Part shown: in pieces, positions 2,348 through 47,036 of the stretch | Layout of the letters: each line of letters begins with the position of its first letter | Numbering within the stretch: position 1 is the stretch's first letter | Source: Thermomicrobiales bacterium | GTDB lineage: Bacteria; Chloroflexota; Chloroflexia; Thermomicrobiales; CFX8 | Reading direction: 5' to 3' | Assembly: GCA_037045155.1 (NCBI GenBank) | Contig: JBAOIG010000003.1 | Location: forward strand, 5,818-69,817 | DNA length: 64,000 bases | Position numbers and translations under genes: made by a program | Notes under the pieces: model-generated | What the model saw: the letters and a program-made list of their open reading frames with translations, nothing else | Database searches by the model: none | What the model was told of the DNA's origin: nothing

Positions 2348-2387
2348 TGTGGCTCAGTCTAGCCGCGAGCGCGGCGCAGTCTCCGCC

Positions 2388-3428: not shown

Positions 3429-3635
3429 GGCCTTCGTGTAGCGCACTTTGCGCCGCGAATGCACCTCGCGACGACGGGTTTTTCGCACGCCGGCGGGGGG
3501 AGTCACCGCCCTCCGGCGCTCCTGTGGTCACGAGCCCTTCGCCTCGATAACATGGCTCGTCGTGCCCAAACTCCGCCCGCGCGCCCACCTCTTCCTGCCG
3601 CCGGTCTCCGTGGGCCGCGTTTTGGGCAGGTCGCG

Positions 3636-5236: not shown

Positions 5237-5265
5237 CAAAGGTCGCCTCTTTATGGAGCTGGAAA

Positions 5266-6353
5266 ATGAGCACGCGCATCGGGTCTTCGCGTTTCGTCAC
5301 CGCCGCGCCGCGCGGGTGCTTGGTCGTTGCCCTCGCCGCGGCCACACTTCTCGGCGCAGCGCCCTCTGAGGCGCAACGTCGACGTCGCCCTCGGCCCGTC
5401 GCACCGACCGCACCCGTGCCCGTCGTCGCTCCGGTCGCGCCAGTGGCGCCCCAGCGGCCGAGCCTTGGCCGAATCCCTCAGCGGCGATGCGCGCGCCGAC
5501 TACGACTCGGGGCGCGAGCTGTTCCGCGACGGCGATTTCGCCCGGTGCCCTCGTGAAGTTCGAGAGCGCGCACAAGAAGTCCGCCGACGCGCGCCTCCTC
5601 TGGAACATGGCTGCTTGTGAGAAGAACCTGCGCCACTACGCCAAGGTGCTCGAGCTCGTGCGCCGGTACCTCGCCGAGGGCGGCGACAAGCTCGACGACA
5701 AGGATCGCGCGGAGGCCACCGACCTCCTTCGCACCGTCGAGCCGCTCACCACCAAGCTTCGCGTCAACGTCAACGTGCCCGGGGCCGAGGTCGCCATTGA
5801 CGACGTCGTCGTCGGCACCGTCGCCCATGACTCGACGGAGCCCGTGATCGTCGACATCGGCATGCGTCGCGTGCGCGTTCGCAAAGACGACCACAAGGAG
5901 TTCACGACGCAGATGCCCGTGGGCGGGAGCGCGGAGGTCGCCCTCGTCGCCTCGCTCGTGCCGATCGTGCACGAAGGAAAGTTGTCGGTCACGGCCAAGG
6001 ACGGGCAATCGATCTACGTCGACGGAAAACTCGTCGGCACGGGCCGCTGGGACGGCGTCGTCAAGAGCGGCGGTCACCAGATTCGCGTCATCGCTCCGGG
6101 CATGAGGCCGTTTCAGTCAGGAGAAATCGTGGTGCAAGACGAGCAGGCCCGGACCGTTCCGGTGACCCTCGAGAAGGAGCCGGAAGCGCCCTCGAAGGTT
6201 CCCGCCTGGGTTTGGATCGGCGGCGGCGTGCTCCTCGCGGCCGGTGCCACCGTGGGCGCCGTCGTCATCTTTCGCCCCGAGGATCGCACCGAGCCGGCTC
6301 CCGTCGGAAACCTCGCGCCGGGCAACGTGCAGGCGTCGGTTCGCTTCCGCTAG
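5266..6353 (+). pseudogene. PEGA-domain secreted/membrane protein, two frame switches near the 5' end
   Basis: ATG 5266 (GGAG upstream) gives the signal peptide MSTRIGSSRFVTAAPRGCLVVALAAATLLGAAPSEAQ. The reading continues in a second frame (LAESLSGDARADYDSGRELFRDGDFA) and then in the 5487..6353 frame, which has TPR-like and PEGA-like segments and a C-terminal TM helix (WVWIGGGVLLAAGATVGAVVIF). Confidence 0.55.
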
Positions 6354-6381
6354 GCCGGCGTCAAGCCGACCGACGGGCCCG

Positions 6382-7004
6382 TCAGCTCGAGCTCGCGAGC
6401 CGCGGTCGGAGAATCTCGCGGAGGTAGCTCGCCGACGACGGCGCGTGGCACGACGCGCATGCGCCGTCGAAGCCGACGTCGTCGCAGCTCCGGCAGACCG
6501 TGAGCGCCTCGTAGGGCGTGGCGTCGACGAGGTAGTCGACGAGGAAGAGCGAAAGGACGCGCGCGGCGAGGCGCATCTTGGGCTGATCGACGGGCAGCCA
6601 CACGAGCTCCCCGGCATGACGCGCTGGCTCGAGATGACCGTCGCGCATGGCGAGCGTCACTGCGTTCCATTCGCCCTCCGAGAGCTCAACCAACGCGTCG
6701 ACGACGACGCGCCGGGTCGACGCGAGGAGCTCGGCGATGGAGCGCTCGCTCATGGGCGCGGCCTCGTGGCGTGATTCGCTCGCGCCGTCGTCCGCCGCCT
6801 CGGCTTCGGCGCTGACGTTCGCAAGGGCGCGATACGGACCGCATAGCCACTCCGCCAAGTCGCGCTCCAGCCGTCGCGGGCCCCGTCGAGGAACGCAAGC
6901 CCCGTCTCGCGACAGGCCTCGGCAAACGTCGAGGGGGTTTCTTCCGCGCGGTCCAACGGCTCCACCTCGATGGATTCTGCAAAGTTGGTGCTCACGCCTG
7001 CGGG
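6382..7004 (-). pseudogene. hypothetical protein with one frame switch near 6860
   Basis: Protein-like sequence runs from the 6750..7139 frame (STNFAESIEVEPLDRAEETPSTFAEACRETGLAFLDGARDGW) into the 6382..6858 frame (AEWLCGPYRALANV...MSERSIAELLASTRRVVVDALVELSEGEW). The GTG start at 7004 is a guess. Confidence 0.3.
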
Positions 7005-7341
7005 CGTCGTTTGGAACGGCCCGGGACGCCCTCGGTGTCCATTTCCGCTCAGGGTGCCGCTCTCGAGGCTCTCGTCGGCGACCGATGGACCCGCGGAGAT
7101 CCGCCGGGCCGTTGCGCGAAAATTACACTCGCTGGGCACCGTCGACAGGTGCCACGTCGGGATCCGTCGGGCCGACTTTTCTGTCAGACCCTTTCGCGGT
7201 CTGAGAGCCCTCAGCGGTGAGAGGCCCTTCAGAAGGTTCCGACGGCGGCGGCGCCGGCGCCCATCGGAACGAACGCGATCGACGGAACGTTCGCTTGCCG
7301 AGCCGGCCTGTTCTTGGGTGTCGCGCTCGCCGGGCCGACGC

Positions 7342-8169
7342 TCACGGTGCGCGGCGGCAGCCAGAGGCGACGAGCAAGGCGCCGAAGGTCTGCATGGCGC
7401 CGCTCGTGATGAGCGCGCCGCGCGTGGCCGTCTCTTCGATGCACGGATCGACAGGAATCAACTCGGAGCCGGGCGGCGGGGTGCAGTTGGGGCGCTTCGC
7501 AAAAGCCATGAACGGCCCCGCGACGGGGATCAGAAGCTCGCGATCGGCGCTGCGCTTGGAGGCGGCGCCGAAATACGCCGTCGGCGCGTAGGCCAGGAGC
7601 AAGACCGTCGCGCCGCCGATGAGGAGGCCCGTGGGCCTCGACACCTCCGAAGCGGCGACGCCGTCGGCGGAAGGGCGCGTCCTTACCGGCTCGATGTCCT
7701 GCCGTGGCGCGCTCTCGACCTCGATGCGATCGTGCGACAGGAGCTCGAGGGTGGCGTCGGGCCCCGTCGTCACGCCGCGCACCGAATCGCCGGAGCGCGA
7801 CATCGCCGCCGTGCCGGGTCGAAAGACGACGCGCCTGCCGTCGGTGTGCCGCACGGCGATGACTTGGCCCGCCGCGTCTTGTTCGATCACGGCGCCGAAC
7901 TCGACGGGCTCGCTCGCGACGAGGGTGATCTCGCCGCGATCAACCCGCGCGCCCTCCGGCAGGGGGATTCGCTTGGTCGAGCGAATGATCGCGAGCGGCC
8001 GAAGCGCGTCGCGGCGGGCCTCGGCCGGCGACACCGTGTGCGTCGCGACCACTTGGCCGCCACAAGCGGGGAGGCCGCCCATCGTCGCCACCAAGAGCGC
8101 CGTGCCAAGAAGACGCCCGACGCCGTGCCCACGAGGAGATGCACCACGGAACCACGGAAGGCACTCCAT
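7342..8169 (-). CDS. lipoprotein, unknown function
   Basis: Intact 275-aa ORF. The N-terminus GRLLGTALLVATMGGLPACGG has a lipobox. The exact start is uncertain. Confidence 0.5.
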   Translation of the reverse strand: MECLPWFRGASPRGHGVGRLLGTALLVATMGGLPACGGQVVATHTVSPAEARRDALRPLAIIRSTKRIPLPEGARVDRGEITLVASEPVEFGAVIEQDAAGQVIAVRHTDGRRVVFRPGTAAMSRSGDSVRGVTTGPDATLELLSHDRIEVESAPRQDIEPVRTRPSADGVAASEVSRPTGLLIGGATVLLLAYAPTAYFGAASKRSADRELLIPVAGPFMAFAKRPNCTPPPGSELIPVDPCIEETATRGALITSGAMQTFGALLVASGCRRAP

Positions 8170-8322
8170 ACCCTTGCGAACGGCCGCATGCGCGAGCCCT
8201 TAAAGGGCTCGGCCATCTTCAGCGTTGTTGTCAGCGCCGAGCCGCCCTCGGCTACGCTCGTGCGTCCCGGTGCGCGCCGATTTCGAGAGCGCGCCGGCGC
8301 CCACAACCGGGCCAGAGGTCTC

Positions 8323-9797
8323 ATGCGTCACGTCACGGTCTTGCTCTCGGCGGTCTTCGGCCTCGTGACCACCGTGGCGGCTTGCGGCTCCGAGTCGGCG
8401 GCGACCTTCGGCTCTGCTCGAGGCCGAATCATCGGTGGGCAGCTCGACGCGACGCACCTGGCGGTCGTCGCTGTGATGCTCGACGCTGGCGTCTGCACCG
8501 GCACCATCGTTCGCACCGACCCGGTCACCGGCGTCGGGTGGGTGCTGACGGCCGCCCACTGCGTCGACGGAAAGAAGGCCGCGTACGTACGCATGGTGGA
8601 CGACTACACCCTGGGCCAGAACGAGCCCCAGCCGTACCTGCGCGCGACGGACTTTGTCGTCTCGGAGACCGTGAGGCACCCCGGTTACGTCGCCCTCACG
8701 GGCACGACGCCGCCGCAGAATGACTTCGCCGTTTTGCGCATCCTCGGCGTCGACGCCTCGACGCCGGTGATTCCGATCTTGCCCGCGAACTTGGACGATC
8801 TGGCGATCGGCAAGTCCGTCGTCGAGGTTGGGTACGGCAAGATCAGCGGCGTCGTCGACGCTGGCGACAACTCCAAGCGCCGGAGCGTCACCACGACGCG
8901 TCACCAAGGTGTCGGCGACGGAGCTCGAAACCAGCTACGCCATCGGCAGCACGTGCCAGGGCGACAGCGGCGGCCCGTCGCTCTACGTCTCCGGCGGCAA
9001 GGAGTACGTCGCCGGCGTCACGTCGTATTCGGACTCGGAGTGCAAGGTGTACGCGGTCGCGGAGCGCGTGTCGTCGGCGCTCGCGTGGATCGACGGCGAG
9101 GTGAACAAGGCGCCGGCGCTGAGCGGCTGCAATCTGGTGCCGCGAGGTCTCCACGGTCGGCTCGCACGCGTGTCACGCGGCCTACGAGCGCTGCAACAGC
9201 GACGCCGCATGCGCCGCGCTCCGCGACTGTCGTAGCCACGTGCAGCACGCGGCGGCCTGCTTCGCGACGTGTGAGTCGCGAGCACCCGCTCGCCGTCGGG
9301 GCCGCTCCTCGCGTGGGCCAACTGCGCGTGCCTCGGCGAGTGCAAGAGCAAGTGCGGCAGCGTGTCGGCGTGCGGCAATGTCCCCAAGTGCAGCGTCGAC
9401 GTCGGTGTCACCGCGTGCGGCAAGTGCCAGGAGGCGAGCTGCTGCAGCGAGGTGACGACGGCGGCGCACGAGCCCGTGGGCAACCGGTGCCTCGCCACCA
9501 AGGGGACGTTCGCCGGGTGCGCGTCCAACGCGGCCTACAAGGCGGTGGAGGCGTGTCGCGCCTCGAGGTGCGCCGCCGACTGCGGCCTCGCGCCGCCGTC
9601 GCCGTCCGCGCCTCCGCTCGCCGAGGCGCCACCGGCAGGCGACGCGGGCTCGGCGCCTCCCGCGCCCGCGGCGGCACCGCCGGCCGAGGACTCAGGCTGC
9701 GCGGTCGTCGGGAGGGTCGTCCTCCGCCCCGACGTCGTCGGCCTCGTGGGTGGCCATGGCGCTCCTCGCGTGGGCGCGGCGCCGCCGCGTCCCCTGA
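8323..9797 (+). pseudogene. trypsin-like S1 serine protease with Cys-rich C-terminal region and MYXO-CTERM tail, frameshifted
   Basis: ATG 8323 gives the lipoprotein signal MRHVTVLLSAVFGLVTTVAACGS, then IIGG...LTAAHC (catalytic His). A second frame holds GDSGGP (catalytic Ser). Further frames hold Cys-rich segments (CHAAYERCNSDAACAALRDC; CGKCQEASCCSEV). The last frame reads GCAVVGGSSSAPTSSASWVAMALLAWARRRRVP then stop (9795-9797), which is the MYXO-CTERM pattern. Confidence 0.6.
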
Positions 9798-9841
9798 GCG
9801 AAGCCGTGTGCTGACCCGCCGCGCCGCGCTATCATCCAGCG

Positions 9842-11230
9842 ATGCGCCGCACTTCCTTTCTCGGTCTCAGCGTCCATGGTCGTCGCCGTCGGCACTTACG
9901 CCGCGTGCGTCGACGACGATCCGTCCAACCCGGGTTTCCAATTCGACGGCGGCGGTCTCGACGCCGCTTCGCCTGACGGCACGACGCCGGAGACCGGCGT
10001 GCCGCCCGTCGGCATCGACGCCGGTGGCGCCGCCGACGCGGGCCCCGCCCCCGTGACCGTGCTGCTGACGCGAGCCGGTGCGCCCGCGAGCGGCGTGACG
10101 GTGGTCTTCCACGACGCGAGCGGCGCCGTGCATCGATACACGCACCACCGACGCCAGCGGCCAAGCCGCGATGGTCGTGCCCGCCGGCTCGCAAGTCACC
10201 GCGGTCTTCGGCACGGTCACCAACCCGGAGCTCGTCACCATCGCTGGCGTCGAGCCAGGCGACGTGCTCCGCGCCGCTGAGCCGCTCGCGGCGGCCCAGC
10301 CGCCATTCCCCTCGATTGACATCGAATCGGCACCGGCGTCGCCGCCCGCGGGGACCGCCTATTACCTGGCGCGCGTGGGCTCCTGCTCGAACAGCGTCAA
10401 CGTCGTCGACGGCGGGCAGGCCGGCCCCATCAACGTGACCCTCGATCCTGGTTGCACGAACGGGTCCACCGTGTCGGTGGTCGTGGAGGCGAAGAGCGCC
10501 GGCTCCGCGACGCTGGGCTTCGCCTCGCTGGCGAGCGCGTCAATCGCCGACGCCGGTGTCGTGACGCCGATGCCCGTCGACGTTGGTGGCACGTGGGCCG
10601 ACGCCGGAGCGCAGGCGCTGCAAGTCGTAGGCGCCGATCCAATCGCCTCCGGCAATGCGGTCTACTCCGAGATCATGAACAGCGGAGCCATCTCTTCGTT
10701 CACGAACGTCGTCGGCAACGCAGACGGCGGGCCGCTGCAGCTCTCCTTCGAGGTGCATCCAGGCGTCGCGGCGAACGGTCAATATGAAGTTAATTATCGG
10801 GAGGACCTCTCAAGCGGCGTCGCCTTTCGCGCCATCGCCGGGCGCAGCGCCAGCGGGGAAATCCGAGCATCGACGTCGCGCAGATGATGCCGGCGCTAAC
10901 GGCGGCGGACGTCGACGCCGGTGTCCCGGCTCGTCCCGCCGTCACTTGGGCTTCGGCACCACCGTCACCGCCGACGGCCTCTTCGTCCGCGTGCGCTGGT
11001 GGGAGTCGCCGACCGACGGCGGAGCGTACGTCTCGGGGCGCTGGACCATGGTCGTCCCCCCGCAGACCCAGGTAATCCAAGCCCCGCAATTGCCCGCCGC
11101 GCTGGCCGCCTACGCGCCGAGCGCCACATCGTCCGTTTACCAGACGCCGACGCTCGTGTTCGTCGACTCGAGCCTCTTGCCCGGCTACCGCGAGCTCCGG
11201 CAGGTCTCTGCCTCCGTCGGGCCGTCGCAA
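9842..11230 (+). pseudogene. lipoprotein, unknown function, at least 4 frame switches
   Basis: MRRTSFLGLS then VVAVGTYAACVDDD (lipobox) in the next frame. Protein-like segments continue through the 9876, 10171, 10884 and 10784 frames. There is no stop before the FkbH-like gene. Confidence 0.35.
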
Positions 11231-11233
11231 AAC

Positions 11234-12357
11234 ATGTACGAGGATCGACCGGGCGGTGGCCTCGTCCGCCTGATCGCAGTCGATTGCGACAACACACTCT
11301 GGGGTGGGGTTGTTGGCGAGGTCGGGCTGGGACGGAATCGAGCTCGGCGAGGATGGCCCCGGGCGCGCCTACCAGCTCTTCCAGCAGCAGCTGAAGCGGC
11401 TCAAGGAGCGGGGCATCCTGCTTGCGGTGGTCAGCCGCAACGAGGAGGCGGATGTCCTGGAGGTGTTCGAGCGCCACCCCGGCATGGTGCTCCGGCCGGC
11501 CGACATCGCGACCTGGAGCGTCAACTGGCGCCACAAGTCGGAGAACCTGCGCTCGCTCGCCGAGGAGATGAACCTGGGGCTGGACAGCTTTGTGTTTCTG
11601 GACGATGACCCGGCGGTGCCGGGCGGAAGTGGCAGCGCGCGCGCCGGAGGTCCACGTCGTCCCCTTGCCGAGCCGCGCGACGGGATACGCCGAGGCGCTC
11701 GCGCGGCTCTGGCTATTCGATGGCGCCCAGGCGACGGATGTGGACGCGGCGCGGACGCAAATGATGCAGGAGGAAGGACGACGCAAGCGCGAATCGACGG
11801 CAGCCGCCAGCATCGACGAGTTCCTCGCCGGGCTGGACCTGCGGGTCGAGATGCGACCGCCGGAGGACACTGAGTGGGCGCGTGTCGCTCAACTCACCCA
11901 GCGCACCAATCAGTTCAACCTGTCGTTGAAGCGTCGCACCGTCGAGGAAGTCCGGGCATTGGCCGGCGAGGAGGCGGTTCTTGTCTTGAAGGCGGCCGAC
12001 CGGTTCGGAGATTACGGCCTCGTCGGGGTGGTATTCGTCCGGCCGCCGGACGCGGCCCGCTCGGCCGAAATTGACACGCTGCTGATGAGCTGTCGGGCAC
12101 TCGGCCGGGGCGTCGAGGATGCGTTCCTCGCCGGCATGGCGGCGCTAGCCGCCGGCCAGGGAGCAACAACCCTGGTCGCGCCATACGTCGAAGGAAAGCG
12201 CAACGCGATGGTGCTGGACTACCTGCGACGCAGTGGATTCACCGAGCAGGGCTCCGGAGCATGGACGCTCTCGATCGTCGATCCGCCCTCACTGCCGGCC
12301 CACGTCCAGTTCGATAGCCCCTTGCTCGTCACGACCGGCGCTCCCGGGGGCAACTGA
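11234..12357 (+). pseudogene. FkbH-like HAD-IIIC family protein, two net +1 frame switches
   Basis: MYEDRPGGGLVRLIAVDCDNTLWGG (HAD motif I) is followed by WDGIELGEDGPGRAYQLFQQQLKRLKERGILLAVVSRNEE...FVFLDDDPAV in the next frame, with an extra base at 11327. RAEVAARAPEVHVVPLP...TNQFNL...MSCRALGRGVE follows in the third frame, with an extra base at 11619. The gene ends at the stop at 12355-12357. Confidence 0.6.
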
Positions 12358-26811: not shown

Positions 26812-26972
26812 GGCCCTCATCGCTGCCCAGAGGGCTCCCGCCCCCTCTCCCAATGCTGGGAGAGGGGGTGTTGCGTGGCTTACGTGCTGGTTACCAGTAG
26901 CGATCTCGACAACCCAATCGAGACAAGACCCCCTCTCCCAAAGTTGGGAGAGGGGGCAGGGGGGTGAGGGCC
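26812..26972. repeat. palindromic intergenic element with two CCCCCTCTCCCA-N4-TGGGAGAGGGGG hairpins
   Basis: Hairpins at 26841-26868 and 26929-26956 are nested between the inverted termini GGCCCTCAT (26812) and GGTGAGGGCC (26963-26972). The element lies between the convergent acs and leuS genes. Confidence 0.8.
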
Positions 26973-30046: not shown

Positions 30047-30096
30047 GGCTTCCGCGGTACCACCCTGCTTGGCCGGTCCCGCGTCATCCATGTGGG

Positions 30097-30169
30097 TGGA
30101 GCTGCGGGGACTCGAACCCCGTACCTCAACACTGCCAGTGTTGCGCTCTCCCGGATGAGCTACAGCCCC
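30097..30169 (-). tRNA. tRNA-Ala (anticodon GGC)
   Basis: Hand-folded cloverleaf: acceptor GGGGCUG/CAGCUCC with G3:U70; D arm GCUC-AUCCGGGA-GAGC; anticodon arm CAACA-CUGGCAG-UGUUG; variable AGGUA; T arm CGGGG-UUCGAGU-CCCCG; discriminator A73. CCA is not encoded (the genomic sequence reads CCC). Confidence 0.9.
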
Positions 30170-30344
30170 ATGACGATACGTGAGGCCGGCCCGCTTGGAG
30201 GCCTGATAACGGAGGCTACCCGGCGATGGCTCCTGGACGAGTTCGACCGCTCTGCCGCCTCACACCAACCGGCGGCTCGCTGTGTCCGGTCTACTGCTCC
30301 CGATCGACGCTACGCTCGTGCCACGGTCTCCCGTGAACCCGCTA

Positions 30345-30427: not shown

Positions 30428-31078
30428 ATGGCCGAGGCATCCGCGACGACTGACCAGATCCAGACGATCGGCGAGCGAGTCCTCGCCCGGCTGGATAGCA
30501 CCAACATCGCTCGTGAACGGGCGCTGGCCGAAACGCGCCAGATCGTGCGGATGAGCGCCAATGCGATCCGCGCCGTACATCGCAACGACTTCGCCGAGGC
30601 GCGCGATCTGCTGGCGAAAGCGCGCGCGATGCAGGACGCGCTGGCCGCCGACCTGCGCGACACGCCGAACATCTACTGGTCGGGCTACGTCCAGGACGCG
30701 CAGAAGGAGCTGGCCGAGGCGAACATCGTCCACGGCATCATCTCCGGCAGCGGCGTGCCGGGGCCGGAAGACCTCAACGTCGAAGACGCTGTCTATCTCA
30801 ACGGTCTGGCCGAAGCCGCCAGCGAGCTGCGCCGCTACATCCTCGACGCCCTCCGCCGCGACCAGCCGGAACGCACCGAGGCGCTGCTGCAGACGATGGA
30901 CGACGTCTACGGCCTGCTGGTCAGTGTCGATTACCCGGACGCTGTCACCGGCGGACTGCGGCGCACGACGGACATGCTGCGCGGCGTGCTGGAGCGCACC
31001 CGCGGCGACCTGACCATCTCGATGCAGCAACGCAGCCTGCTCGCGGCGCTGGACCGGGCGGCCAGCACGCCGACGTAG
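30428..31078 (+). CDS. translin family protein
   Basis: 216 aa, all-helical. The YLNGLAEAASELRRYILDAL block matches the conserved YL.GL.D..GEL.R of translin/TRAX by recall. The gene is divergent from the T-box promoter. Confidence 0.55.
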   Translation: MAEASATTDQIQTIGERVLARLDSTNIARERALAETRQIVRMSANAIRAVHRNDFAEARDLLAKARAMQDALAADLRDTPNIYWSGYVQDAQKELAEANIVHGIISGSGVPGPEDLNVEDAVYLNGLAEAASELRRYILDALRRDQPERTEALLQTMDDVYGLLVSVDYPDAVTGGLRRTTDMLRGVLERTRGDLTISMQQRSLLAALDRAASTPT

Positions 31079-31277: not shown

Positions 31278-32792
31278 ATGATGCGGCGAGGATCCCGGTT
31301 GCTGGCGCTGGTCGCCAGCGTGCTGTTTCTGATTGCTTCGGCAAGCCTGCCGGGGAAAGCGAGGGCAGACGATGTCTATGTCGTCTACTTTCCCTGGGTC
31401 TCGAACAACGAGACGATCGGTGGGCAAGGGCCGTGGTCGTCGACGCTTGCGATCCACAATCTGAGCAACAATCCCTGCCCCATGTCGGTCTACGTCGTCC
31501 AAACCAGCGGCTGGAATAAGACGGCGCAACTCTCGCTCAATGCGGCGTCGACGCGTTCGATCGCAGCATTGTCGCTCGGTGTGCCGAAGCCTGGTTCGCC
31601 CGTTCGTCTCGAAGCAACCTGTCCGATTGCCGCGAGCGTCAAGGCATTCGCGCCGGCCACTGCCGCAGCCCCATGGTCGGACGGCGCCGGCATTATCACC
31701 GGCTACACCGGGTTGAGCGAGTTCGACATCGCCGCGTCACGCAACGGGCCAGACGCTGGCTGGGTCCTGCCGCTCGTCCAGACCAACACCGGCTGGAACA
31801 CGCTCGTCACCATCGCGAACCTTGGCACGACGCGGGCTGACGTCACGCTGAATCTCTATGCGACGGGCAACGAGGACGGCGCGGACGGCGCGACACTCTC
31901 GCTCCAGCAGGAGATTGCGGCCGGCGGCGTCTGGACGATCGACGCGCAATCCGCGCTCGGCCAGACGGGCTGGGTCGGCTTTGCCCGTATCACAGCAAGT
32001 GGGAACATCGGGGTCATCGCCCGGCGGGTCAAGCCATCGGCGCAGATGGCGATGATCAACGTCGGAGTCGCGACGAGCAGCTTCGCGTCCGGGGCCTATC
32101 GATCGGCCGCGCCATTGCTGTTCAACAACTACAACGGGTGGAATACCGGTATCACGTTGGCCAATCCGTCCGCGATTCCCGCGACGGTGACTGTCGAGTA
32201 CCACGAGGCAGGAGGCACACACGTGTCGAATACCGAGGTCGTTGTTCCCCCCTTCTCGATGCAGTACATCTATACACCAGGCTCGGTTGCGCAAGACGGC
32301 TTTGTTGGCGGCGCGAATATCCTCAGCAACGTCCCGATCATCTCCTCTATCGACGAGGTGAAGTACGAGACGATCGAGGGGCTGTCCTACATGGCGAACG
32401 CCGGTGGACAGAGCGAGGTAACCATCCCGATTGTGTTCCGTGAGAATCCGAAGTACTTGCAACACGACAACTCCGGCATCGCCATCGCGAATCTCGACCC
32501 GGCCGCCAGCGTGACGGTTGCCATTGGCTTCCTGTCGCTCTATGGAGCGGATCTGCTGCCGACGCCGATACAGCTGACGATCCCGGCTGGCGGTGTTGGA
32601 ACGATCTACTTGCCGTTTGTCGACGGACTGCCGGCCGGCACCGTCGCAACCGCGCGGCTGACGACCGCTAGCCCGGCTGGCATCGTCGCAGTCTCGAACG
32701 ACGTCAATTACACGGTTGCGGGTGACGGCTCGGTCGTCTTCAACGCATGGGGCGCGACAGGGTCGTATATCGCCGGAGGGGCGGGGCAGTGA
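31278..32792 (+). CDS. secreted protein built from four copies of an unassigned beta-rich module (paralog of the 43923..47036 N-terminal half)
   Basis: ATG 31278 (GGAGAAG upstream) with signal peptide MMRRGSRLLALVASVLFLIASASLPGKARA. Recurring module starts: YFPWVSNNE..., LPLVQTNTGWNTLVTIANLG, APLLFNNYNGWNTGITLANP, IPIVFRENP...GIAIANLD. The C-terminal VSNDVNYTVAGDGSVVFNAWG matches VSANVDYQVQGDGSVIWNGYN in the paralog. Confidence 0.7.
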   Translation: MMRRGSRLLALVASVLFLIASASLPGKARADDVYVVYFPWVSNNETIGGQGPWSSTLAIHNLSNNPCPMSVYVVQTSGWNKTAQLSLNAASTRSIAALSLGVPKPGSPVRLEATCPIAASVKAFAPATAAAPWSDGAGIITGYTGLSEFDIAASRNGPDAGWVLPLVQTNTGWNTLVTIANLGTTRADVTLNLYATGNEDGADGATLSLQQEIAAGGVWTIDAQSALGQTGWVGFARITASGNIGVIARRVKPSAQMAMINVGVATSSFASGAYRSAAPLLFNNYNGWNTGITLANPSAIPATVTVEYHEAGGTHVSNTEVVVPPFSMQYIYTPGSVAQDGFVGGANILSNVPIISSIDEVKYETIEGLSYMANAGGQSEVTIPIVFRENPKYLQHDNSGIAIANLDPAASVTVAIGFLSLYGADLLPTPIQLTIPAGGVGTIYLPFVDGLPAGTVATARLTTASPAGIVAVSNDVNYTVAGDGSVVFNAWGATGSYIAGGAGQ

Positions 32793-34885
32793 CAGCAGGC
32801 AGGACGGACGAGTTCTCTGAGATCGTCGCCGCGTTGAACGCTGGCGATCTGCCAGAGGTATTCGCGTTGATCGAGCGCGAGCTGGCGGGAGACGCCGGCC
32901 AGGAACGCCGATACGCGCTTCTGTTGATGCGGGCCAGGCTACGGATGGTCTCCGACGATCCGGGACTGGCGTTCCCCGACCTCGACGATGCGCTGACGCT
33001 CGCCGGTTCGACGGGAGGGCAGGCCGCAGTTCTCCAGGCGCGCGCCGAGGCCGCCGAGGCAGTTGGCGAGCTGGATATGGCTCGCGCAGATCTCGAACGC
33101 CTGATCGCGACGGTGACCGATCCGACTGACCTGGCGGCAGCCGAGCAGGTGCTCGGCCGGGTCGAGCGCGACGGTGGCGACATCGCCCGCGCAGTCGCGT
33201 TGCTGGAGAACGCCCGCCGGCGCTTGATCGTGGCTGGCGCTGACGACGATCGTGTTGCGGAGGTGGCGCTCGATCTCGCTATGGCGTTACGACTGGCCGG
33301 CCGGGCGGAAGAGTCGATCGCGCTCTTGCGGGAGGTCGCCGCGTCGGCTGGGCCGGAGTTCGCTGCCCGTCTGCTCGTTCAGATCGGCACGAGCTGCGCG
33401 TTCATTGGCGACTATGACGCCGCGCTCGAGGCGTGGGCCGAGGCGCTGCCGATGCTGGCGGACGGTGATGATCGCGCGGTCGTGCGCTACAACCGGGCCG
33501 TGGCGTTTCGCGATATGAGCAGGCTTGACGAAGCGCGCGACGACCTGCAACGCGGACTGGTGGATAACGCCGGGCTGAACCCGCACACCGAGTTCGACCT
33601 GCTCCTGCTGCTCGGCATCGTCGAGCGGGAGCGCGACGACAGCCAGCGCTCGCTCAACGCACTCGGCCAGGCGGCCGCGTTGATGCCCGACGGCGACCCG
33701 CATGGGCGCGCCCGGCTGGAGATCGGGACGACGCTGGCGGTTGCCGGGCTCGTCGGGCTGGCCGTCGAGGAGCTTGGAGCGGCCGCCCAACTCTGCGCGA
33801 ACCCTGACGATCGCGCCCGGGCGTTTCGTTCGCGTGGCGCGGCGCGGCAGGAGCTGGGCCTGGTTGACCTGGCGCTCGATGATTACAGCAGGGCCATCGA
33901 ACAGACAACCGACACTGACGAGCGAGCTCGTGGGCAGATCACCCGCGCAACCATCCTTGGGGCGCTCGATCGGCGGCGCGAGGCGCTGATAGCGCTGGGG
34001 GATGCCGCGCTGGCCGCTCGCGACCCGGAGGTGGCTCGTCAGGTGATCGTCCAGCGCGGGGCGCTACGCTCGGCCACCGGCGACCTCGATGGCGCGATCG
34101 CTGACCTGGAGCTCGGTCGCGACTTGGCATATCGGGCGGGCGATGACGATCTGGCCGCGCGAGTTTCGGTAGATCTCGGGGCGATTTTCGTTGCGGTCGG
34201 TCGTGAGGCTGACGCGATCGGGTTGTTCGACCATGCGCTGGCAACGGCGGCCGGCGGGGATGTCGCGTTCACCGCACTGATGCATCTCGGCAGCGTCCAC
34301 GTCGCGCGCCGCGAGCCGCTGGCGGCGCTTGGCGCGTTCGAGCGCGCCGCCGGCGCTGCTCACGACGACCGGGAGGGTCGGGCACGCGCCTTCCTGGCAC
34401 GCGCCGGCGCAGCCCAACGCTTCCAGCGCTTTGGCGAGGCCGCTGCGGACTACGCGCGGGTCCTCACCCTCCAGCCGGGGCCGCAGGCATTCGACCAGGC
34501 GTCGATCGGGCGGGACGTCATCGCGAACCAGATCGGCAGCCTCGAACGCGCGCGGGCGGAGCTGACCATCCTTATGCGAGCGCCCGAGGAGCCCAGCTTC
34601 CGGGCCGGCCCGACGCTTCAACGTGGCCTGATCGCGCTGCAGTTGGGCGATATCGCCGCGGCCGAGATCGATCTCCACCGCGCGTCCCGAATGTACCGAC
34701 TCCTCCCCGATCGCGCCCTCGCCGAGGCGTGCCTGGCGCTCCTCTCCGCCCATCTCGGCCGTTGCGAGGATGCACGCCAACACCTTATTGTCGCGGCCGA
34801 TCTCGACCCGGCCGGCGCCTGGAAGGCGCAACTGGCCGACGAAGCGGACTGGAACAACTGTCCGGGCGTGACAGATGAGGGCTGA
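32789..34885 (+). CDS. TPR-like repeat protein, cytoplasmic
   Basis: GTG 32789 overlaps the upstream stop (GTGA). ~700 aa of Ala/Leu/Asp/Arg-rich helical repeats with TPR-like periodicity and no signal peptide. Confidence 0.6.
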   Translation: MTAGRTDEFSEIVAALNAGDLPEVFALIERELAGDAGQERRYALLLMRARLRMVSDDPGLAFPDLDDALTLAGSTGGQAAVLQARAEAAEAVGELDMARADLERLIATVTDPTDLAAAEQVLGRVERDGGDIARAVALLENARRRLIVAGADDDRVAEVALDLAMALRLAGRAEESIALLREVAASAGPEFAARLLVQIGTSCAFIGDYDAALEAWAEALPMLADGDDRAVVRYNRAVAFRDMSRLDEARDDLQRGLVDNAGLNPHTEFDLLLLLGIVERERDDSQRSLNALGQAAALMPDGDPHGRARLEIGTTLAVAGLVGLAVEELGAAAQLCANPDDRARAFRSRGAARQELGLVDLALDDYSRAIEQTTDTDERARGQITRATILGALDRRREALIALGDAALAARDPEVARQVIVQRGALRSATGDLDGAIADLELGRDLAYRAGDDDLAARVSVDLGAIFVAVGREADAIGLFDHALATAAGGDVAFTALMHLGSVHVARREPLAALGAFERAAGAAHDDREGRARAFLARAGAAQRFQRFGEAAADYARVLTLQPGPQAFDQASIGRDVIANQIGSLERARAELTILMRAPEEPSFRAGPTLQRGLIALQLGDIAAAEIDLHRASRMYRLLPDRALAEACLALLSAHLGRCEDARQHLIVAADLDPAGAWKAQLADEADWNNCPGVTDEG

Positions 34886-35028
34886 GGCAATGGGGATGAC
34901 AAAGCCGCAGGGACAGCGTGCCTCAAGAGGCTCGTGACGTGAATCACGAAACCGGTTACCCTTTCGGGCATCGGGCTGAGAACAATCGGCGGATGACGTA
35001 ACCGACCCTGACGAATGTGAGGAAATGA

Positions 35029-36720
35029 ATGGCTGCACGGAAAGAGGAGCGCCAGATCGACGTCTCGCGCTTCCATACGTTCGACGAGATGACGGGGCTG
35101 CTCAAGGGGCTGGTAGAAACCTACCCGACGCTGGCCACGATCGAGTCGATCGGCCAGTCCCACGAGGGACGCGACATCTGGCTGCTGACGATCACGAATC
35201 AGCAGACCGGCGCGGCGGGTGACAAGCCTGCCATGTACATCGACGCCAACATCCACGCCGGCGAGGTCACCGGCTGTAATGTCGCCCTCTATACCATCGA
35301 GATGCTGCTCGCTGGCTACGGGAATGACGCCGATATCACCGAGCTCCTCGACACAAGAACGTTCTATATCGCCCCGCGCGTCCAGCCAGACGGCGCCGAG
35401 CTCTATCTGACGACGCCGTACACCCTTCGCTCCTCCGTCCGCGAGTGGCCAGGCGGCGACCCGGACGATGGCCTGACGGCGGAGGACATCGACGGCAACG
35501 GGCTGATTCTCCAGATGCGGGTGAGAGACCCGAAGGGCGAGTGGCGCGTCTCCGATCATGACGCGCGTCTGATGGTCAAGCGCCGGCCCGACGAGCTGAC
35601 TGGCGAGTTCTACCGCCTCTATACCGAGGGCGTTCTGAATAACCACGTCCGCGGGCCAGTGACGCTGGCGCGTCCGAAATGGGGGCTGGATCAGAACCGC
35701 AACTGGCCGGCAAACTGGTCGCCGGTGCAGCGCGGTGGCGGGCCACACCCGCTGTCCGAGCCGGAGACGCGGGCTGTCGCAACGTTCGTCGAGTCGCATC
35801 GCAACATCGTCATGATCCAGAACTACCACACGACTGGCGGGGTGATCCTGCGCGCGCCGTGCGCGGTCGATGACAAGACGCTCCCGCCGCGCGACGTGGA
35901 CACCTACAAGAAGATCGGCGACATCGGTGAGGGGATCACCGGGTATCCCTGCGCGTCCGTCTTCGACGCCTTCCAGGAGGTAGATGACAGCGGCCGGCGG
36001 AGCCAGTCGGGCGGGTTCATCGAGTGGACCTACTACCACCTCGGCGTCTTCTCCTTCGCGACCGAGTTGTGGGATCTGCAATCCCGAGCCGGCATCGAGC
36101 GGCCGGCCAACGATGCGATGCGCAGCATGCGTGAGCAGACCGAGGACGATGGCCTGAAGCTGCTGCGCTTCAATGACGAGCATCTCGGTGGACGCTGCTT
36201 CGTGCCCTGGAAAGCGCACGAGCACCCGCAACTCGGCGCGATCGAGATCGGCGGCTGGAAGACGAAGGAGATTCGCCAGAACGCGCCGGCCGAGTTCCTG
36301 CCGGACGAATGCGAGCGCAATGCCGCCTTCACTGTCCGCCAGGCGGCGATGACGCCGATCATCGCGATCGGCGACGTTGCGGTCGAGAAGATCGCCGACG
36401 ATGCCTTCGTGGTTCGGGCGATGGTGGCGAATGAGGGCTACCTGCCGACCTACGGCGCTGAGATGGCGCGGCGGATCGAGGCGGCCAAGCCGGTCGAGGT
36501 CGCGATCTCGGGGGCCGAGCCGATCATCGGCAAGGCGAAGCAGTCGATCGGCCATCTGCAGGGCCGAAGCGCGGCACGCGGGATGATGTTCTCCTTCGGC
36601 GGCGCAAAGGTGGATAACGAGCGCTTGCTGGAGTGGCTCGTCCGCGGCAACGGCGAGGTCACAATCACCGCGACATCCGAAAAGGGCGGCGTCGCGCGCA
36701 AGACGGTGGCGCTGGCGTAG
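35029..36720 (+). CDS. M14 family metallocarboxypeptidase
   Basis: SHEGRDIWLLTITN, YIDANIHAGEVTG (HxxE zinc ligands), NRNWP, and HPLSEPETRAV...YHTTGGVILR are typical M14 blocks. No signal peptide. Confidence 0.8.
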   Translation: MAARKEERQIDVSRFHTFDEMTGLLKGLVETYPTLATIESIGQSHEGRDIWLLTITNQQTGAAGDKPAMYIDANIHAGEVTGCNVALYTIEMLLAGYGNDADITELLDTRTFYIAPRVQPDGAELYLTTPYTLRSSVREWPGGDPDDGLTAEDIDGNGLILQMRVRDPKGEWRVSDHDARLMVKRRPDELTGEFYRLYTEGVLNNHVRGPVTLARPKWGLDQNRNWPANWSPVQRGGGPHPLSEPETRAVATFVESHRNIVMIQNYHTTGGVILRAPCAVDDKTLPPRDVDTYKKIGDIGEGITGYPCASVFDAFQEVDDSGRRSQSGGFIEWTYYHLGVFSFATELWDLQSRAGIERPANDAMRSMREQTEDDGLKLLRFNDEHLGGRCFVPWKAHEHPQLGAIEIGGWKTKEIRQNAPAEFLPDECERNAAFTVRQAAMTPIIAIGDVAVEKIADDAFVVRAMVANEGYLPTYGAEMARRIEAAKPVEVAISGAEPIIGKAKQSIGHLQGRSAARGMMFSFGGAKVDNERLLEWLVRGNGEVTITATSEKGGVARKTVALA

Positions 36721-36728
36721 GAACGGAC

Positions 36729-36937
36729 GGCCCTCACCCCCTGCCCCCTCTCCCAACTCTGGGAGAGGGGGTGGCTTATATTGCGGGGCAGAGAGTGAGA
36801 CCGTCGAATACAGGACACCCCCTCTCCCAGCATTGGGAGAGGGGGTGGCTTATATTGCGGGGCAGAGAGTGAGATCGTCGAATACAGGACACCCCCTCTC
36901 CCAGCATTGGGAGAGGGGGCCGGGGGGGATGAGGGCC
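36729..36937. repeat. palindromic intergenic element with three CCCCCTCTCCCA-N4-TGGGAGAGGGGG hairpins at a 74-bp period
   Basis: Hairpins at 36744-36771, 36818-36845 and 36892-36919, with near-identical 46-bp spacers. The element is bounded by the inverted termini GGCCCTCACCCCC and GGGGGGATGAGGGCC, and lies between the convergent M14 and gcvPB genes. Confidence 0.85.
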
Positions 36938-43768: not shown

Positions 43769-43922
43769 ACGAACAGACAACACACAGGATACCCAGGGCT
43801 GATTGACGGGAGGGATACCAGCAATCAGAAATGGCCGTCGCGCCATCGATTGTGCGCGGGGATGCGGTGGCCAGGGGGATCAGAGCGCGCAAGCTTGTGA
43901 CAACTGATTAGGGGTGGATGTG

Positions 43923-46900
43923 ATGAGGAAGCCCTCGCGGTTTCTTCGTATTCTTGCCACGCTGGGCATGCTGGCGGGGTTGTTGGCCGTCCTGGGGGGG
44001 ACGCCAGCCGCCGCGGCCGCTCCGAGTCCTGGTTGGGACCCGGGCGTCGCGCCAGGCAACCTGTTCTTTTCCATTGGTGGGGCTCAGGAGGTCTATTTCC
44101 CGTGGGTCTACAACAACGACAGCTTCGGCCTGGGTGAGGCGAACGGATCGGTCACGGTCCAGAACCTGACGCATGTCGATGGCTATGTCTTCTTCTACGT
44201 CGGTGATGGCGACGGCTGGACATACACCTCGTATGCCAACCTGGCCGGCGGCGCGTCGAAGACCTTCTCGGCCGCCTCCATCGGAGTCCCGGCCCCGGGC
44301 GCTCCGGTCATGGCAGCCATCTATGAGGAGAAGATCTCGTACGACGGCACGAAGTACGTTTGCGAAGGCGACTATGGCCACGACATCAATGGAGACGGCG
44401 ACTTCAACGACTGCGACTACATCGCGGTGCGGAAGAACGTGCTCGTCCCGCTGTGGGCTGCTGGCCTGGTCAAGTCGGCGGTGGCCGGCGCGGGCCTTCC
44501 ATACACCACATCGGCGGACAGCTCGGTCTCGGGGTACAACGGCCTGAGCGGCGCAGAGGTCGAGCTCGACCGCAACGATGATCTGGCCGACGGTGTTTAC
44601 ATTCCGATCGTCCAGACTAACGACGGTCCGGGCGGCGCGTGGGACACCCGGGTGACCGTCGCCAACCTCGGTGACAATGCCAACGCAGGGGTGACGCTGC
44701 GCTTCTTCCCGAACAACGGGGATGGCTCTGGCTCGCTGCAGACCGGTTGGCAGGAGAACGTGCTGATCAGTGTCGGCGCGGTCTACCAGCTCACCCTGTC
44801 TGACCTCGTCCCAACGGGTTGGACCGGCTCTGTCCACATCTATTCGGATGACAGAATCGGGGCGATCGCCGATCGTTACAAGGTCGGCACCAACATGTGG
44901 CTGACCAATATCGGCAGCCAGGCCAGCTTCGAGGTCCAGCCAGGCGCATATTGTGGCGAGGGTGGCTGCGGCGTCGATATCAATGGCGGCCTGTGGTACC
45001 CGTTTGCCGGCCAGTACGTGCTGTTCGCGCCGCTGGTGTACATGGACTACAACGGCTGGAACACCGGCTTCTCGGTCGCGAACCTGGTTAGCGCCGATAA
45101 CAACATCAACATCCAGTACGTCCACAACGGCAATGCCATCCAGGTGCTGACGCAGCGGTTGTCGGCGCACGGGATGATCACGGCGTACCGGCCGAGCCAG
45201 CCGGACCAGGACCAGAACCAGCAGAACGTGATGTTCGACCAGGTTGCTGGGGCGCTGATCCTGTCGGACGCGCCAGTGGCGGTGGCGGTCGACGCCGTCA
45301 AGTACTTCGGGAACGACAACAACGTTGGCCAGGCGATGACGTACAACGCCACTGCTGCGCTGAGCACCGCCCAGGCGATGCCGCTGGTGCAGAAGGGCAA
45401 CCCGGCGACGGGCATGGGGGCGACCTCGGGCCTGGCGCTATTGAATCCGCTGCCGCTCCCGAACTCGATGGCGGTGACCTGGCTGAACCAGTCGGGGTAC
45501 AACGCGGCGAACTTCGGGACATCGACGATCATCGTGCCGGCGCAGTCGATCGGGATTGCGTACACGATGACGCAGCACAACCTGCCGAACGGGTACTACG
45601 GGTCGGCGGTGGTGCACGCGAACCTGCCGTTCACGATGGTCTCGGCGAACGTCGATTACCAGGTGCAGGGTGATGGCTCGGTGATCTGGAACGGGTACAA
45701 CCCGTGTGGATTGTTCCGGGCGTACCAGGAAGACTGTGTCTGGGGTTGGCCGGAACAGCCGGGCCTCGCGACACTGACCAAGATCGTCGTCGACAAGGAA
45801 GGCAATCCGATCGCGGGTGTCAAGGTCACCTTCGACGGCCAGGATGTCAACGGCGACCTCCAGAACGGCGAGGGCTACACCGATGCCGATGGCATCGTCA
45901 GCTGGAGTAGCCTGGTGGCCGGAACCTACAACATCAACGTCGTCGGCGCGCCGGCCGGCTACATGTTCGGCCCCGATTCGGACCTGAGTGACACGAAGAT
46001 CCTCCTGATCGAGGGCGCCAGTGTTACTAAGACCAACATCGTCACGCTGATCCGCCTCACTGCGACGATCACCAAGACCGTCGTCAGCCAGCCGGAGAAC
46101 GGCTACCCGATGGTCGGGATGACGGTCGCGGTCTACGCGGCAGCCAGCTGCCCGGCGCTCGGCTCTACCGTCGCTGACACCTCCGGCGCGTTGGCGTCCG
46201 GCACGACCGGCGATAACGGGCAGGTCGAGCTGACCTTCGACGTTTCCGTAGGCGGCACGGCGGTCTGCGTCGTCGTCATCAACGGGTCCGGCAAGGTCGT
46301 CTCGGTCGACAGTAGTCTGACCTATGGGCCGGCCGCGACCGACGAGATCACGAACGTCGTCGCGGCGACAGCGACGATCACGAAGACTGTTGTGCGCCCC
46401 GGCCCTGCGGATGGCGCGGATATCCCGATCGAGGGCGTGGCGGTCGCGTTGTACGGCGGCGGGTCGTGCCCGGCGGTGGGCGCGACGGCTGGCACGACGG
46501 GACGCCTGACCAGCGGGACGACTGATGCCAACGGCGAAGTCGCGCTGACGATCGACGTTGCGACGACGGGCGCGTCGGTGTGCCTGGTCGTGCTCGACGC
46601 GAACAACAAGGTTGTCGTCCTCGACTCCCCTATCGACATGCTCTATCCGGGCGACACGGTCGAGATCACCAATGAGATCGAGACAACGCTGGATATCTGG
46701 GTCACGGCCGGGTTTACGGTTTTGAATCAGGTTGCGATCTACGTGTTCACTGGCGCTTGCCCGGCAAGCCCGGGGACGACCGGAGCGTACTGGAGCCAGG
46801 CGCTCCAGACGACATATCTAACCATCCCCCTTCTCAGACCCGCGCAGTTCCACCTCTCGTTTCCTCCAGGCCCGTTCTGCGTAGCCGTTGACGCCTACTA

Positions 46901-47036
46901 CAACGGCAGCATCAACACCTGGAGTGGCGGCACGATCCTGCTTGGCGATCCGGAGGAAATCGGCCTCGCGGGCTCTGACGTGGTGGTCGCGCCTCGACTA
47001 TTCAGCCCGTACGCGGCGATCACGATCCAGCCATAA
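43923..47036 (+). CDS. large secreted protein: four-module unassigned N-terminal region (paralog of 31278..32792) plus a Cna-B/prealbumin-like domain plus tandem ~100-aa Cys-pair repeats
   Basis: Signal peptide MRKPSRFLRILATLGMLAGLLAVLGGTPAAAAA. Module starts: YFPWVYNND, IPIVQTNDGPGGAWDTRVTVANLG, APLVYMDYNGWNTGFSVANL, MPLVQKGNP...LALLNP. A DINGDGDFNDCDY Ca-binding-like insert is present. VKVTFDGQ...TDADGIVSWSSLVAGTYNINV is Cna-B-like. Two ATITKTVV...SCPA.G...GTT..NG.V.LT.DV...G...C.VV repeats follow. Confidence 0.75.
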   Translation: MRKPSRFLRILATLGMLAGLLAVLGGTPAAAAAPSPGWDPGVAPGNLFFSIGGAQEVYFPWVYNNDSFGLGEANGSVTVQNLTHVDGYVFFYVGDGDGWTYTSYANLAGGASKTFSAASIGVPAPGAPVMAAIYEEKISYDGTKYVCEGDYGHDINGDGDFNDCDYIAVRKNVLVPLWAAGLVKSAVAGAGLPYTTSADSSVSGYNGLSGAEVELDRNDDLADGVYIPIVQTNDGPGGAWDTRVTVANLGDNANAGVTLRFFPNNGDGSGSLQTGWQENVLISVGAVYQLTLSDLVPTGWTGSVHIYSDDRIGAIADRYKVGTNMWLTNIGSQASFEVQPGAYCGEGGCGVDINGGLWYPFAGQYVLFAPLVYMDYNGWNTGFSVANLVSADNNINIQYVHNGNAIQVLTQRLSAHGMITAYRPSQPDQDQNQQNVMFDQVAGALILSDAPVAVAVDAVKYFGNDNNVGQAMTYNATAALSTAQAMPLVQKGNPATGMGATSGLALLNPLPLPNSMAVTWLNQSGYNAANFGTSTIIVPAQSIGIAYTMTQHNLPNGYYGSAVVHANLPFTMVSANVDYQVQGDGSVIWNGYNPCGLFRAYQEDCVWGWPEQPGLATLTKIVVDKEGNPIAGVKVTFDGQDVNGDLQNGEGYTDADGIVSWSSLVAGTYNINVVGAPAGYMFGPDSDLSDTKILLIEGASVTKTNIVTLIRLTATITKTVVSQPENGYPMVGMTVAVYAAASCPALGSTVADTSGALASGTTGDNGQVELTFDVSVGGTAVCVVVINGSGKVVSVDSSLTYGPAATDEITNVVAATATITKTVVRPGPADGADIPIEGVAVALYGGGSCPAVGATAGTTGRLTSGTTDANGEVALTIDVATTGASVCLVVLDANNKVVVLDSPIDMLYPGDTVEITNEIETTLDIWVTAGFTVLNQVAIYVFTGACPASPGTTGAYWSQALQTTYLTIPLLRPAQFHLSFPPGPFCVAVDAYYNGSINTWSGGTILLGDPEEIGLAGSDVVVAPRLFSPYAAITIQP

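Follow-up and report, generated by a model that had tools for sequence, protein, structure and literature searches.

A secreted protein of four tandem ASRAH (DUF5719) modules in Thermomicrobiales and its clade-specific coupling to a TPR protein gene

We analysed a stretch of 64,000 nucleotides (nt) from Thermomicrobiales bacterium (GCA_037045155.1, contig JBAOIG010000003.1, 5,818-69,817 of the forward strand), here called the window, whose own coordinates are used below. On its + strand the interval 30.4-36.8 kb holds four genes: 30428-31078, 31278-32792, the gene of a tetratricopeptide repeat (TPR) protein that runs to 34885, and 35029-36720. Our subject is the second of these, which encodes a protein of 504 amino acids (aa) with four tandem modules, the tetrad protein. 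An earlier sequence-only reading had described it as a secreted protein of an unassigned family, translationally coupled to the TPR protein and followed by an M14 carboxypeptidase, and had proposed that the three form a conserved arrangement. The tetrad gene starts at ATG 31278, with GGAG 8-9 nt upstream, and stops at TGA 32790-32792. In the following list the i-E (independent E-value of the domain) comes from a module hidden Markov model (HMM) trained solely on distant C-terminal tetrads, with the window and orthologue sequences excluded.

31278..32792, + strand: secreted tetrad gene, 504 aa, signal peptide plus four tandem ASRAH (ASRT-like / DUF5719) beta-sandwich modules.
31278..31367, + strand: Sec-type signal peptide, aa 1-30, MMRRGSR-LLALVASVLFLIASA-SLPGKARA followed by DD, with cleavage predicted after ARA.
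31380..31667, + strand: module 1, aa 35-130, i-E 5.5e-5; the most divergent module, bearing Cys67/Cys115.
31767..32072, + strand: module 2, aa 164-265, LPLVQTNTGWNTLVTIAN; i-E 2e-13.
32091..32414, + strand: module 3, aa 272-379, APLLFNNYNGWNTGITLAN; i-E 8e-24.
32406..32714, + strand: module 4, aa 377-479, IPIVFRENP...HDNSGIAIAN; i-E 6e-8.

The hydrophobic region of the signal peptide reaches a 19-residue Kyte-Doolittle (KD19) maximum of 2.17 at aa 8-26 and is kept in orthologues, and the AXA rule places the putative cleavage site. The tetrad protein has no lipobox Cys, either within the signal peptide or behind it, and lacks a C-terminal anchor and any further hydrophobic segment; Pfam and NCBIfam scans returned no additional domain within its 504 aa. 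The only two cysteines, C67 and C115, both lie in module 1, form a near-invariant pair among orthologues and are compatible with an extracytoplasmic location. Modelled with AlphaFold2 (AF2) on the orthologue alignment (34 sequences, identity down to 34%), the protein is all-beta, with a predicted local distance difference test (pLDDT) score of 88.7 and a predicted TM-score (pTM) of 0.87. Its close homologues number 84, the named ones all belonging to Thermomicrobiales/Chloroflexota, and the stand-alone tetrad is a single-copy orthologue across Thermomicrobiales.

The four modules, of ~100 aa each, are mutually homologous. When slices of the orthologue alignment were compared by hhalign, module 2 was linked to module 3 (prob 97.8, E 7e-13), module 3 to module 4 (prob 97.3, E 2e-11) and module 2 to module 4 (prob 94.7, E 6e-8), the links of module 1 being weaker (prob 58.5 and E 1e-4 to module 3; E 2e-3 to module 2). 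Of the four, module 3 most resembles the generic module seen across the family at large, and the distant tetrads are all of this 'm3 type'. The description of a secreted 504-aa protein with four modules was therefore upheld by the Sec signal, by hhalign and by the independent HMM, and the module motifs that had been quoted for it are all present.

The tetrad module is an ASRAH beta-sandwich, that is, it has the ASRT / TM1070 fold, which Pfam holds as DUF5719 (PF18986), and the family can no longer be called unassigned. The ASRAH superfamily, whose fold is a beta-sandwich of eight strands, was defined from ASRT and TM1070 by de Souza, Iyer & Aravind (2009, Biol Direct 4:25; PMC2739507). Searching the AF2 model against the PDB with Foldseek returned this known fold: the best single-domain match was TM1070 (1NC7; prob 1.00, TM-score on the target (TMt) 0.69-0.73, root-mean-square deviation (rmsd) 4.1 A, 120 columns), and chains B and D of 1NC7 matched similarly (1nc7_A TMt 0.73), the match being one scored by Foldseek, strand topology apart. 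At the sequence level, the top match of the module profile among PDB sequences (hmmsearch) was ASRT 2II7 (E 0.02, 72 of 112 profile positions), and hhalign of the same profile against the ASRT family alignment A4 (E 2e-4, prob 46.6, 76 columns) paired N296 with the Asn of the ASRT '...CILN'. Pfam ASRT was matched in one of 23 modules (E 0.015) and DUF5719 in 10 of the 23. Since ASRT and TM1070 are themselves homologous in sequence (E 6e-8), structure and sequence point to one family. Although the window protein scores one bit below the DUF5719 gathering threshold (25.2 bits, E 1.1e-5; threshold 26.2 bits), half of its orthologues (17/34) match DUF5719 at E <= 0.01, the best at 4.6e-12. Related Chloroflexota tetrads pass the threshold (P0216 46.6, P0206 29.2, P0187 27.7 and P0198 27.5 bits), and the orthologue P0078 carries the NCBI label 'DUF5719 family protein'. 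The window tetrad is an outlying member of the DUF5719 superfamily. Its assignment to ASRAH rests on the structure match and on the published transitive searches, together with sequence links that are individually borderline, as first-pass E-values also were in the 2009 paper (PMC2739507). The full-length profile had no match among PDB sequences beyond CD2 at E ~1, and tblastn against PLSDB plasmids gave no match to the tetrad. A word-indexed search with the profile of one module brought up just 3 matches. Literature searches on 'DUF5719' and 'PF18986' yielded no papers, and a search on 'ASRAH' found the term in the 2009 paper only (PMC2739507).

The top whole-chain Foldseek matches, by contrast with the single-domain ones, were arrays of macroglobulin (MG) domains in A2ML1/alpha-2-macroglobulin (E 3e-8), on which the tetrad protein could be taken to trap or inhibit proteases in the manner of alpha-2-macroglobulin, with a functional tie to the peptidase encoded nearby. 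However, these matches have TM-scores of 0.16-0.18 at an rmsd of ~25 A and reflect generic tandem sandwiches only. Moreover, the protein has just the two Cys, no CxEQ thioester motif, no bait region and four domains against ~10 MG domains, and the M14 peptidase is cytoplasmic and unlinked. The missing thioester motif effectively refutes a protease trap, which we regard as scarcely credible. Whole-chain matches to A2ML1, transglutaminase, pilin and binary-toxin pore (TM-score on the query (TMq) <= 0.19, generic tandem sandwiches) were all rejected as indicators of family.

The conserved residues of the modules can be read against the ASRAH hallmark, a nearly invariant Asn that closes strand 2 (PMC2739507). 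N61, N181 and N296 are invariant in the 34 orthologues and each closes the second strand of its module, the DSSP strands 174-181 and 288-296 of the AF2 model terminating on N181 and N296; N24 is invariant in the 23-module alignment. Counted back from the strand-2 Asn, the position of the TM1070 ligand-His would correspond in modules 2-4 to N174 and N398 (>= 90%) and N289 (invariant), and by register polar Asn/Thr sit at the His/Cys-equivalent positions of the tetrad modules. Strand 2 is polar and conserved. Strand 1 opens on an aromatic residue, which is W162 in module 2 and Y274 in module 3; the distant tetrads have Tyr. A strongly conserved Trp (W173/W288) precedes strand 2, and the conserved Trp described for the superfamily follows a polar residue where strand 1 starts.

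Downstream, the tetrad gene runs into the TPR gene, and the M14 gene follows:

32775..32792, + strand: coupling junction, GGAGG 32775-32779, a 9-nt spacer and GTG 32789-32791 overlapping TGA 32790-32792.
32789..34885, + strand: TPR protein gene, 698 aa, TPR_12 3e-23 and TPR_1 1e-15 (Pfam).
35029..36720, + strand: M14 carboxypeptidase gene, 563 aa, Peptidase_M14 E 9e-47 (Pfam), starting 143 nt past the TPR stop.

As the sequence-only reading had it, the tetrad stop overlaps the GTG start of a signal-less TPR protein of about 700 aa. That protein has no signal peptide or transmembrane (TM) segment (KD19 maximum 1.56), and its single-sequence AF2 model is all-helical at low confidence (pLDDT 59.9, pTM 0.39). 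ATG 32747, in-frame but without a Shine-Dalgarno sequence, was rejected as an alternative start. For the neighbourhoods we used a pattern scan of GTDB species representatives, which gave 63 loci, all of class Thermomicrobia, and combined tblastn of the window neighbours against these loci with an orthologue distance tree and direct inspection; 28 orthologous loci were informative for TPR presence. The TPR gene follows the tetrad orthologue in 8 of the 28, which make up the basal lineages of the clade to which the window belongs. Every one of the seven other TPR-bearing loci (L001, L004, L005, L006, L008, L010 and L013) has the same GTGA junction, and in each the TPR frame offers no start codon near its head other than the GTG of GTGA; for this reason the overlap is conserved rather than a chance property of the window sequence. 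The tetrad and TPR genes are a clade-specific two-gene unit, and a GTG start that overlaps the tetrad stop implies co-production of the two proteins. In a derived sub-clade an amidohydrolase gene takes the place of the TPR gene, which suggests a single TPR loss, and in the Nitrolancea-like clade the TPR gene never follows the tetrad orthologue.

In the TPR-less clade the gene downstream of the tetrad gene encodes an Amidohydro_3-type amidohydrolase of ~540 aa (L007 3003-4631, L011 11558-13180, L002 13411-15030). Its gene begins 16-25 nt past the tetrad stop in L007 and L011; in L002 the distance is ~1.9 kb. The M14 gene of this clade is immediately preceded by an FmdA/AmdA-like gene.

The M14 protein is likewise signal-less and encoded in the same orientation, as had been stated; its HxxE...H...E catalytic set, read from the sequence, is intact, and its nearest solved relatives are carboxypeptidases A2 and T. 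That the tetrad, TPR and M14 genes make up a conserved and novel three-gene system for assembling or maturing the envelope would fit their common strand, the GTGA overlap of the first two, a gap ahead of M14 in which we found no terminator-like hairpin, and the recurrence of the trio in L004 and L006. But these two loci and the window are the only three in which M14 stands directly after the TPR gene (within ~1 kb of its stop). Two opposite-strand genes separate it in L005, unrelated genes and a distance of 3.6-6 kb set it apart from the tetrad gene in L007 and L011, and no M14 gene comes after the TPR gene in L001, L008 and L013. In addition, the TPR gene is confined to the 8 of 28 informative loci, being replaced by the amidohydrolase in the derived clade and missing from all Nitrolancea-like genomes, and the module belongs to a known family. 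We consider such a system very unlikely; M14 is a syntenic neighbour and not a component of the tetrad unit, and there is no conserved three-gene system. With M14 only loosely syntenic and TPR clade-limited, the proposed linkage of the three genes was refuted in part, as was the unassigned status of the module by the match to TM1070, while the overlap with the TPR gene held in 8/8 TPR-bearing loci.

The tetrad is not confined to stand-alone proteins. A profile search of 1.84 billion cluster representatives (clusters at 50% identity) recovered 2153 proteins at E <= 1e-3, of which 168 reached E <= 1e-30; architectures were counted in the 146 best new representatives among the 2153 matches. Exactly four modules is the commonest count among these 146 (95 proteins), and 109 of them have an N-terminal hydrophobic, signal-like region. 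Three architectures occur: the stand-alone tetrad; an N-terminal tetrad followed by stalk domains (Big_1, SpaA, SdrD_B, CarboxypepD_reg or DUF4815); and a tetrad at the extreme C-terminus of catalytic or propeller domains (Peptidase_S8 in two subtilases, thermolysin M4, Glyco_hydro_cc, GH39-like, BNR_4 and Invasin/Big_1/Golvesin_C). P0208 combines a sortase and fn3 with seven modules (3 + 4), and P0084 is a Vgb-lyase-like propeller with C-terminal modules. The carriers of C-terminal tetrads that bear a name are Chloroflexota. A cassette of fixed number on exoenzymes so varied argues for a localisation or anchoring domain, in the manner of SLH and CWB2, rather than for a substrate-specific module.

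This bears on whether the tetrad is instead a carbohydrate-binding module (CBM)-like unit for environmental polymers, with the stand-alone protein scavenging or sensing external glycans and not its own wall. The fusions to glycoside hydrolases (Glyco_hydro_cc, GH39, BNR_4) speak for it, and the ASRAH fold has been likened to that of CBM4 (PMC2739507). Yet tetrads are carried just as much by two kinds of protease (S8, M4), by a sortase and by adhesin-like stalks, which indicates a role in localisation generally; the fusions in the literature involve a peptidoglycan amidase; and no transporter or sugar-catabolism genes stand beside the orthologue at the inspected loci. A role in binding external polymers is accordingly unlikely in our estimate.

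One such fusion protein is encoded in the window itself:

43914..47036, + strand: 1040-aa paralog, with a signal peptide, an N-terminal tetrad (aa ~58-585, nt 44085-45668), a Big_1/SpaA-like domain and C-terminal repeats.

The paralogy that had been noticed in the N-terminal half of this protein was borne out by BLASTP (E 7e-36, 28% identity, all 504 aa against residues 3-603). Pfam places a Big_1/SpaA/CarboxypepD_reg-like domain at aa 613-695, and the C-terminal part consists of repeated ~110-aa segments with '...TATITKTVV...' twice and conserved Cys pairs. Neither an LPXTG motif nor an SLH domain nor a TM anchor is present in the 1040-aa protein, so that its N-terminal tetrad may be its sole attachment. 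Among the window genes the module HMM found no carriers besides the 504-aa and 1040-aa proteins. Elsewhere, distant tetrad paralogs in L039, L040, L044 and L049 (Sphaerobacter, Thermomicrobiaceae and other Chloroflexota metagenome-assembled genomes (MAGs)) often form tandem pairs within 1-3 kb, and several genomes are multi-copy for the tetrad (e.g. Thermomicrobiaceae MAG CSSed162cmB_603); tandem pairs and many copies point to a lineage-specific expansion of the family.

Taken together, the tetrad protein is, on balance, probably a Sec-exported, non-catalytic, tetravalent glycan-binding protein of the cell envelope, which agrees with the envelope role that the sequence-only reading had rightly suggested. 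TM1070 is a tetramer whose strand-2 cleft is completed at the dimer interface (PMC2739507). Because both ASRT and TM1070 are homotetramers whose ligand clefts are closed where subunits meet, the tandem modules of the tetrad, four in number, probably pack as a single-chain pseudo-tetramer that mimics them, and the pTM of the tetrad model fits a fixed module arrangement. Each module would then offer a 'sideways' sugar-binding cleft on strand 2, with up to four clefts predicted. The ligands predicted for ASRAH domains are sugars, and for the amidase fusions elements of peptidoglycan (PMC2739507). The most likely ligand of the tetrad would be a glycan of its own envelope, either peptidoglycan or a secondary wall polymer; own-wall binding is favoured because a cassette of fixed number sits on unrelated exoenzymes and because the published fusions are to amidases. 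On this basis enzyme-fused tetrads would tether hydrolases to the wall, and the stand-alone tetrad of Thermomicrobiales may act as a tetravalent wall-associated lectin or scaffold. The cytoplasmic 698-aa TPR protein, which appears to be co-produced with it in one clade, might conjecturally serve as a pre-export chaperone or as a regulator.

Several points weigh against a glycan-binding tetrad of this kind. First, the pseudo-tetramer packing and its cleft come from the homologues and are not read from the model coordinates, and the equivalents of His and Cys were located by register and not by superposition. Second, ASRAH sugar binding is itself a prediction of 2009 (PMC2739507), with no ligand known for any ASRAH domain, and the sequence links to ASRT are borderline one by one (E 0.02; hhalign prob 47%). 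Third, no amidase fusion was recovered among the proteins scanned, though published Chloroflexi tetrads are 'always fused to an amidase'. Finally, there is no rationale for coupling an exported lectin to a cytoplasmic TPR protein.

Alternatively, the tetrad protein could be an S-layer or major structural wall protein that forms a lattice into which the enzyme-bearing tetrads dock. Thermomicrobia are reported to have protein-rich walls. S-layers occur in Chloroflexota according to the literature, and the tetrad protein, a single-copy conserved orthologue, has typical S-layer properties: a pI of 4.9, a mass of 50 kDa, a composition rich in Ala/Gly/Val/Thr/Ser with almost no Cys or Met, and Ig-like sandwiches. 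Its conservation, however, is high (48 invariant columns across the 34 orthologues, many of them polar N/D/W/Y) and looks more like that of ligand binding, no S-layer family was matched in Pfam (Slr4 E 0.5), and the S-layer papers found by our literature search name no Chloroflexota protein of the tetrad family. We hold a lattice-forming tetrad to be improbable. A more far-reaching proposal makes the stand-alone tetrad the major glycan-crosslinking or structural protein of the unusual, protein-rich wall of Thermomicrobia, the TPR protein its dedicated pre-export chaperone or dosage partner, and the same tetrad a general surface-anchoring signal of Chloroflexota exoenzymes. We think this quite improbable; if true, it would amount to an envelope module of two genes that had so far gone unrecognised.

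On the other side, the tetrad gene adjoins a gene for a translin-like protein:

30428..31078, + strand: translin/TRAX-like (C3PO-like) gene, 216 aa; AfTRAX 3ZC1 E 1e-21, PRK14562 6e-82 (NCBIfam).

This gene adjoins the tetrad orthologue in every locus with a long enough flank on that side, co-directional and upstream in the window's clade, convergent and downstream in the Nitrolancea-like clade. The adjacency is probably retained ancestral synteny. A functional link between the two genes was dropped from consideration, given that in the Nitrolancea-like group they are convergent and hence not co-transcribed. The PRK14562 name, 'haloacid dehalogenase superfamily protein', looks like a misnomer for a translin/TRAX homologue that matches Archaeoglobus AfTRAX. 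Between leuS and the translin-like gene, a gap of 640 nt holds a tRNA-Ala(GGC) at 30093-30170 (-) and then a terminator-like hairpin at 30047-30014 (-). A perfect palindrome resembling repetitive extragenic palindromic (REP) elements, CCCCCTCTCCCA-N4-TGGGAGAGGGGG, occurs in five copies (0 expected by chance) that form two clusters at gene 3' ends: just past the 3' end of leuS (26841-26868, 26929-26956) and in the convergent M14-gcvP gap (36744-36771, 36818-36845, 36892-36919), where two of the three copies score as terminator-like hairpins. It probably represents a dispersed repeat of intergenic regions with a second function as a terminator in both directions. The G+C content of the window is ~0.70 in 1-12000 and ~0.64 in 12001-64000.

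The module fold, its predicted sugar binding and the existence of secreted Chloroflexi tetrads have been known since 2009; new here are the stand-alone tetrad in Thermomicrobiales, the wider fusion repertoire and the GTGA coupling to TPR in all eight TPR-bearing loci. The tetrad is far more widespread than described in 2009 (2153 clusters versus amidase fusions in a few phototrophic Chloroflexi) and acts like a movable cassette of four modules, carried by proteases and glycosidases as well as by a sortase and adhesin-like stalks. If Chloroflexota use it to anchor proteins to the wall, it closes a gap in what is known of surface-protein display in these monoderm bacteria, and the stand-alone Thermomicrobiales orthologue would be the simplest protein with which to find the ASRAH/DUF5719 ligand. 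The conserved stop/start coupling to the cytoplasmic TPR protein poses a puzzle that is small but concrete.

Among known systems, the closest are the 'family 2' ASRAH proteins. The 2009 survey described secreted tetrads in Chloroflexi (Roseiflexus, Chloroflexus, Herpetosiphon), 'always fused to an amidase' (N-acetylmuramoyl-L-alanine amidase), and dyads in actinobacteria (PMC2739507), Thermomicrobia not being in its species list. The window tetrad shares with the Chloroflexi tetrads the phylum, the signal peptide, the four modules, the strand-2 Asn and the predicted binding of wall glycans. Unlike them, it lacks any catalytic domain where they have an amidase, belongs to Thermomicrobiales, has a strongly diverged module 1 with a conserved Cys pair and, in the window's clade, is encoded by a gene whose translation is coupled to that of a TPR gene. 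ASRT (Anabaena, 2II7) and TM1070 (Thermotoga maritima, 1NC7), of PF07100/DUF1362, have the single-module fold in common with the tetrad, and a stoichiometry of four is found in both, as a homotetramer in the former and within a single chain in the latter. They are cytoplasmic single-domain proteins of ~125 aa with the motif SHEshChhN, whereas the tetrad modules are extracellular, covalently linked and marked by WN(T/S)GhxhxN.

The type members of DUF5719 appear to be the actinobacterial ASRAH dyad lipoprotein of the cell surface ('family 3' of 2009), an equation that we infer, and they are related to the tetrad at the sequence level. That lipoprotein has been described beside WhiB, a glycosyltransferase and an inactive zincin and was predicted to bind the product of the glycosyltransferase (PMC2739507). 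It has a lipobox, two modules and WhiB/glycosyltransferase/zincin neighbours, whereas the window tetrad has none of these but four modules, and its neighbours are the translin-like, TPR, M14, leuS and gcvP genes. Finally, the wall anchors SLH x3, CWB2 x3 and LysM, which are unrelated to the tetrad in fold and sequence and offer an analogy rather than a membership, would, if our inference holds, be its functional counterparts, being likewise fixed-number cassettes carried by diverse secreted enzymes and by stand-alone surface proteins.

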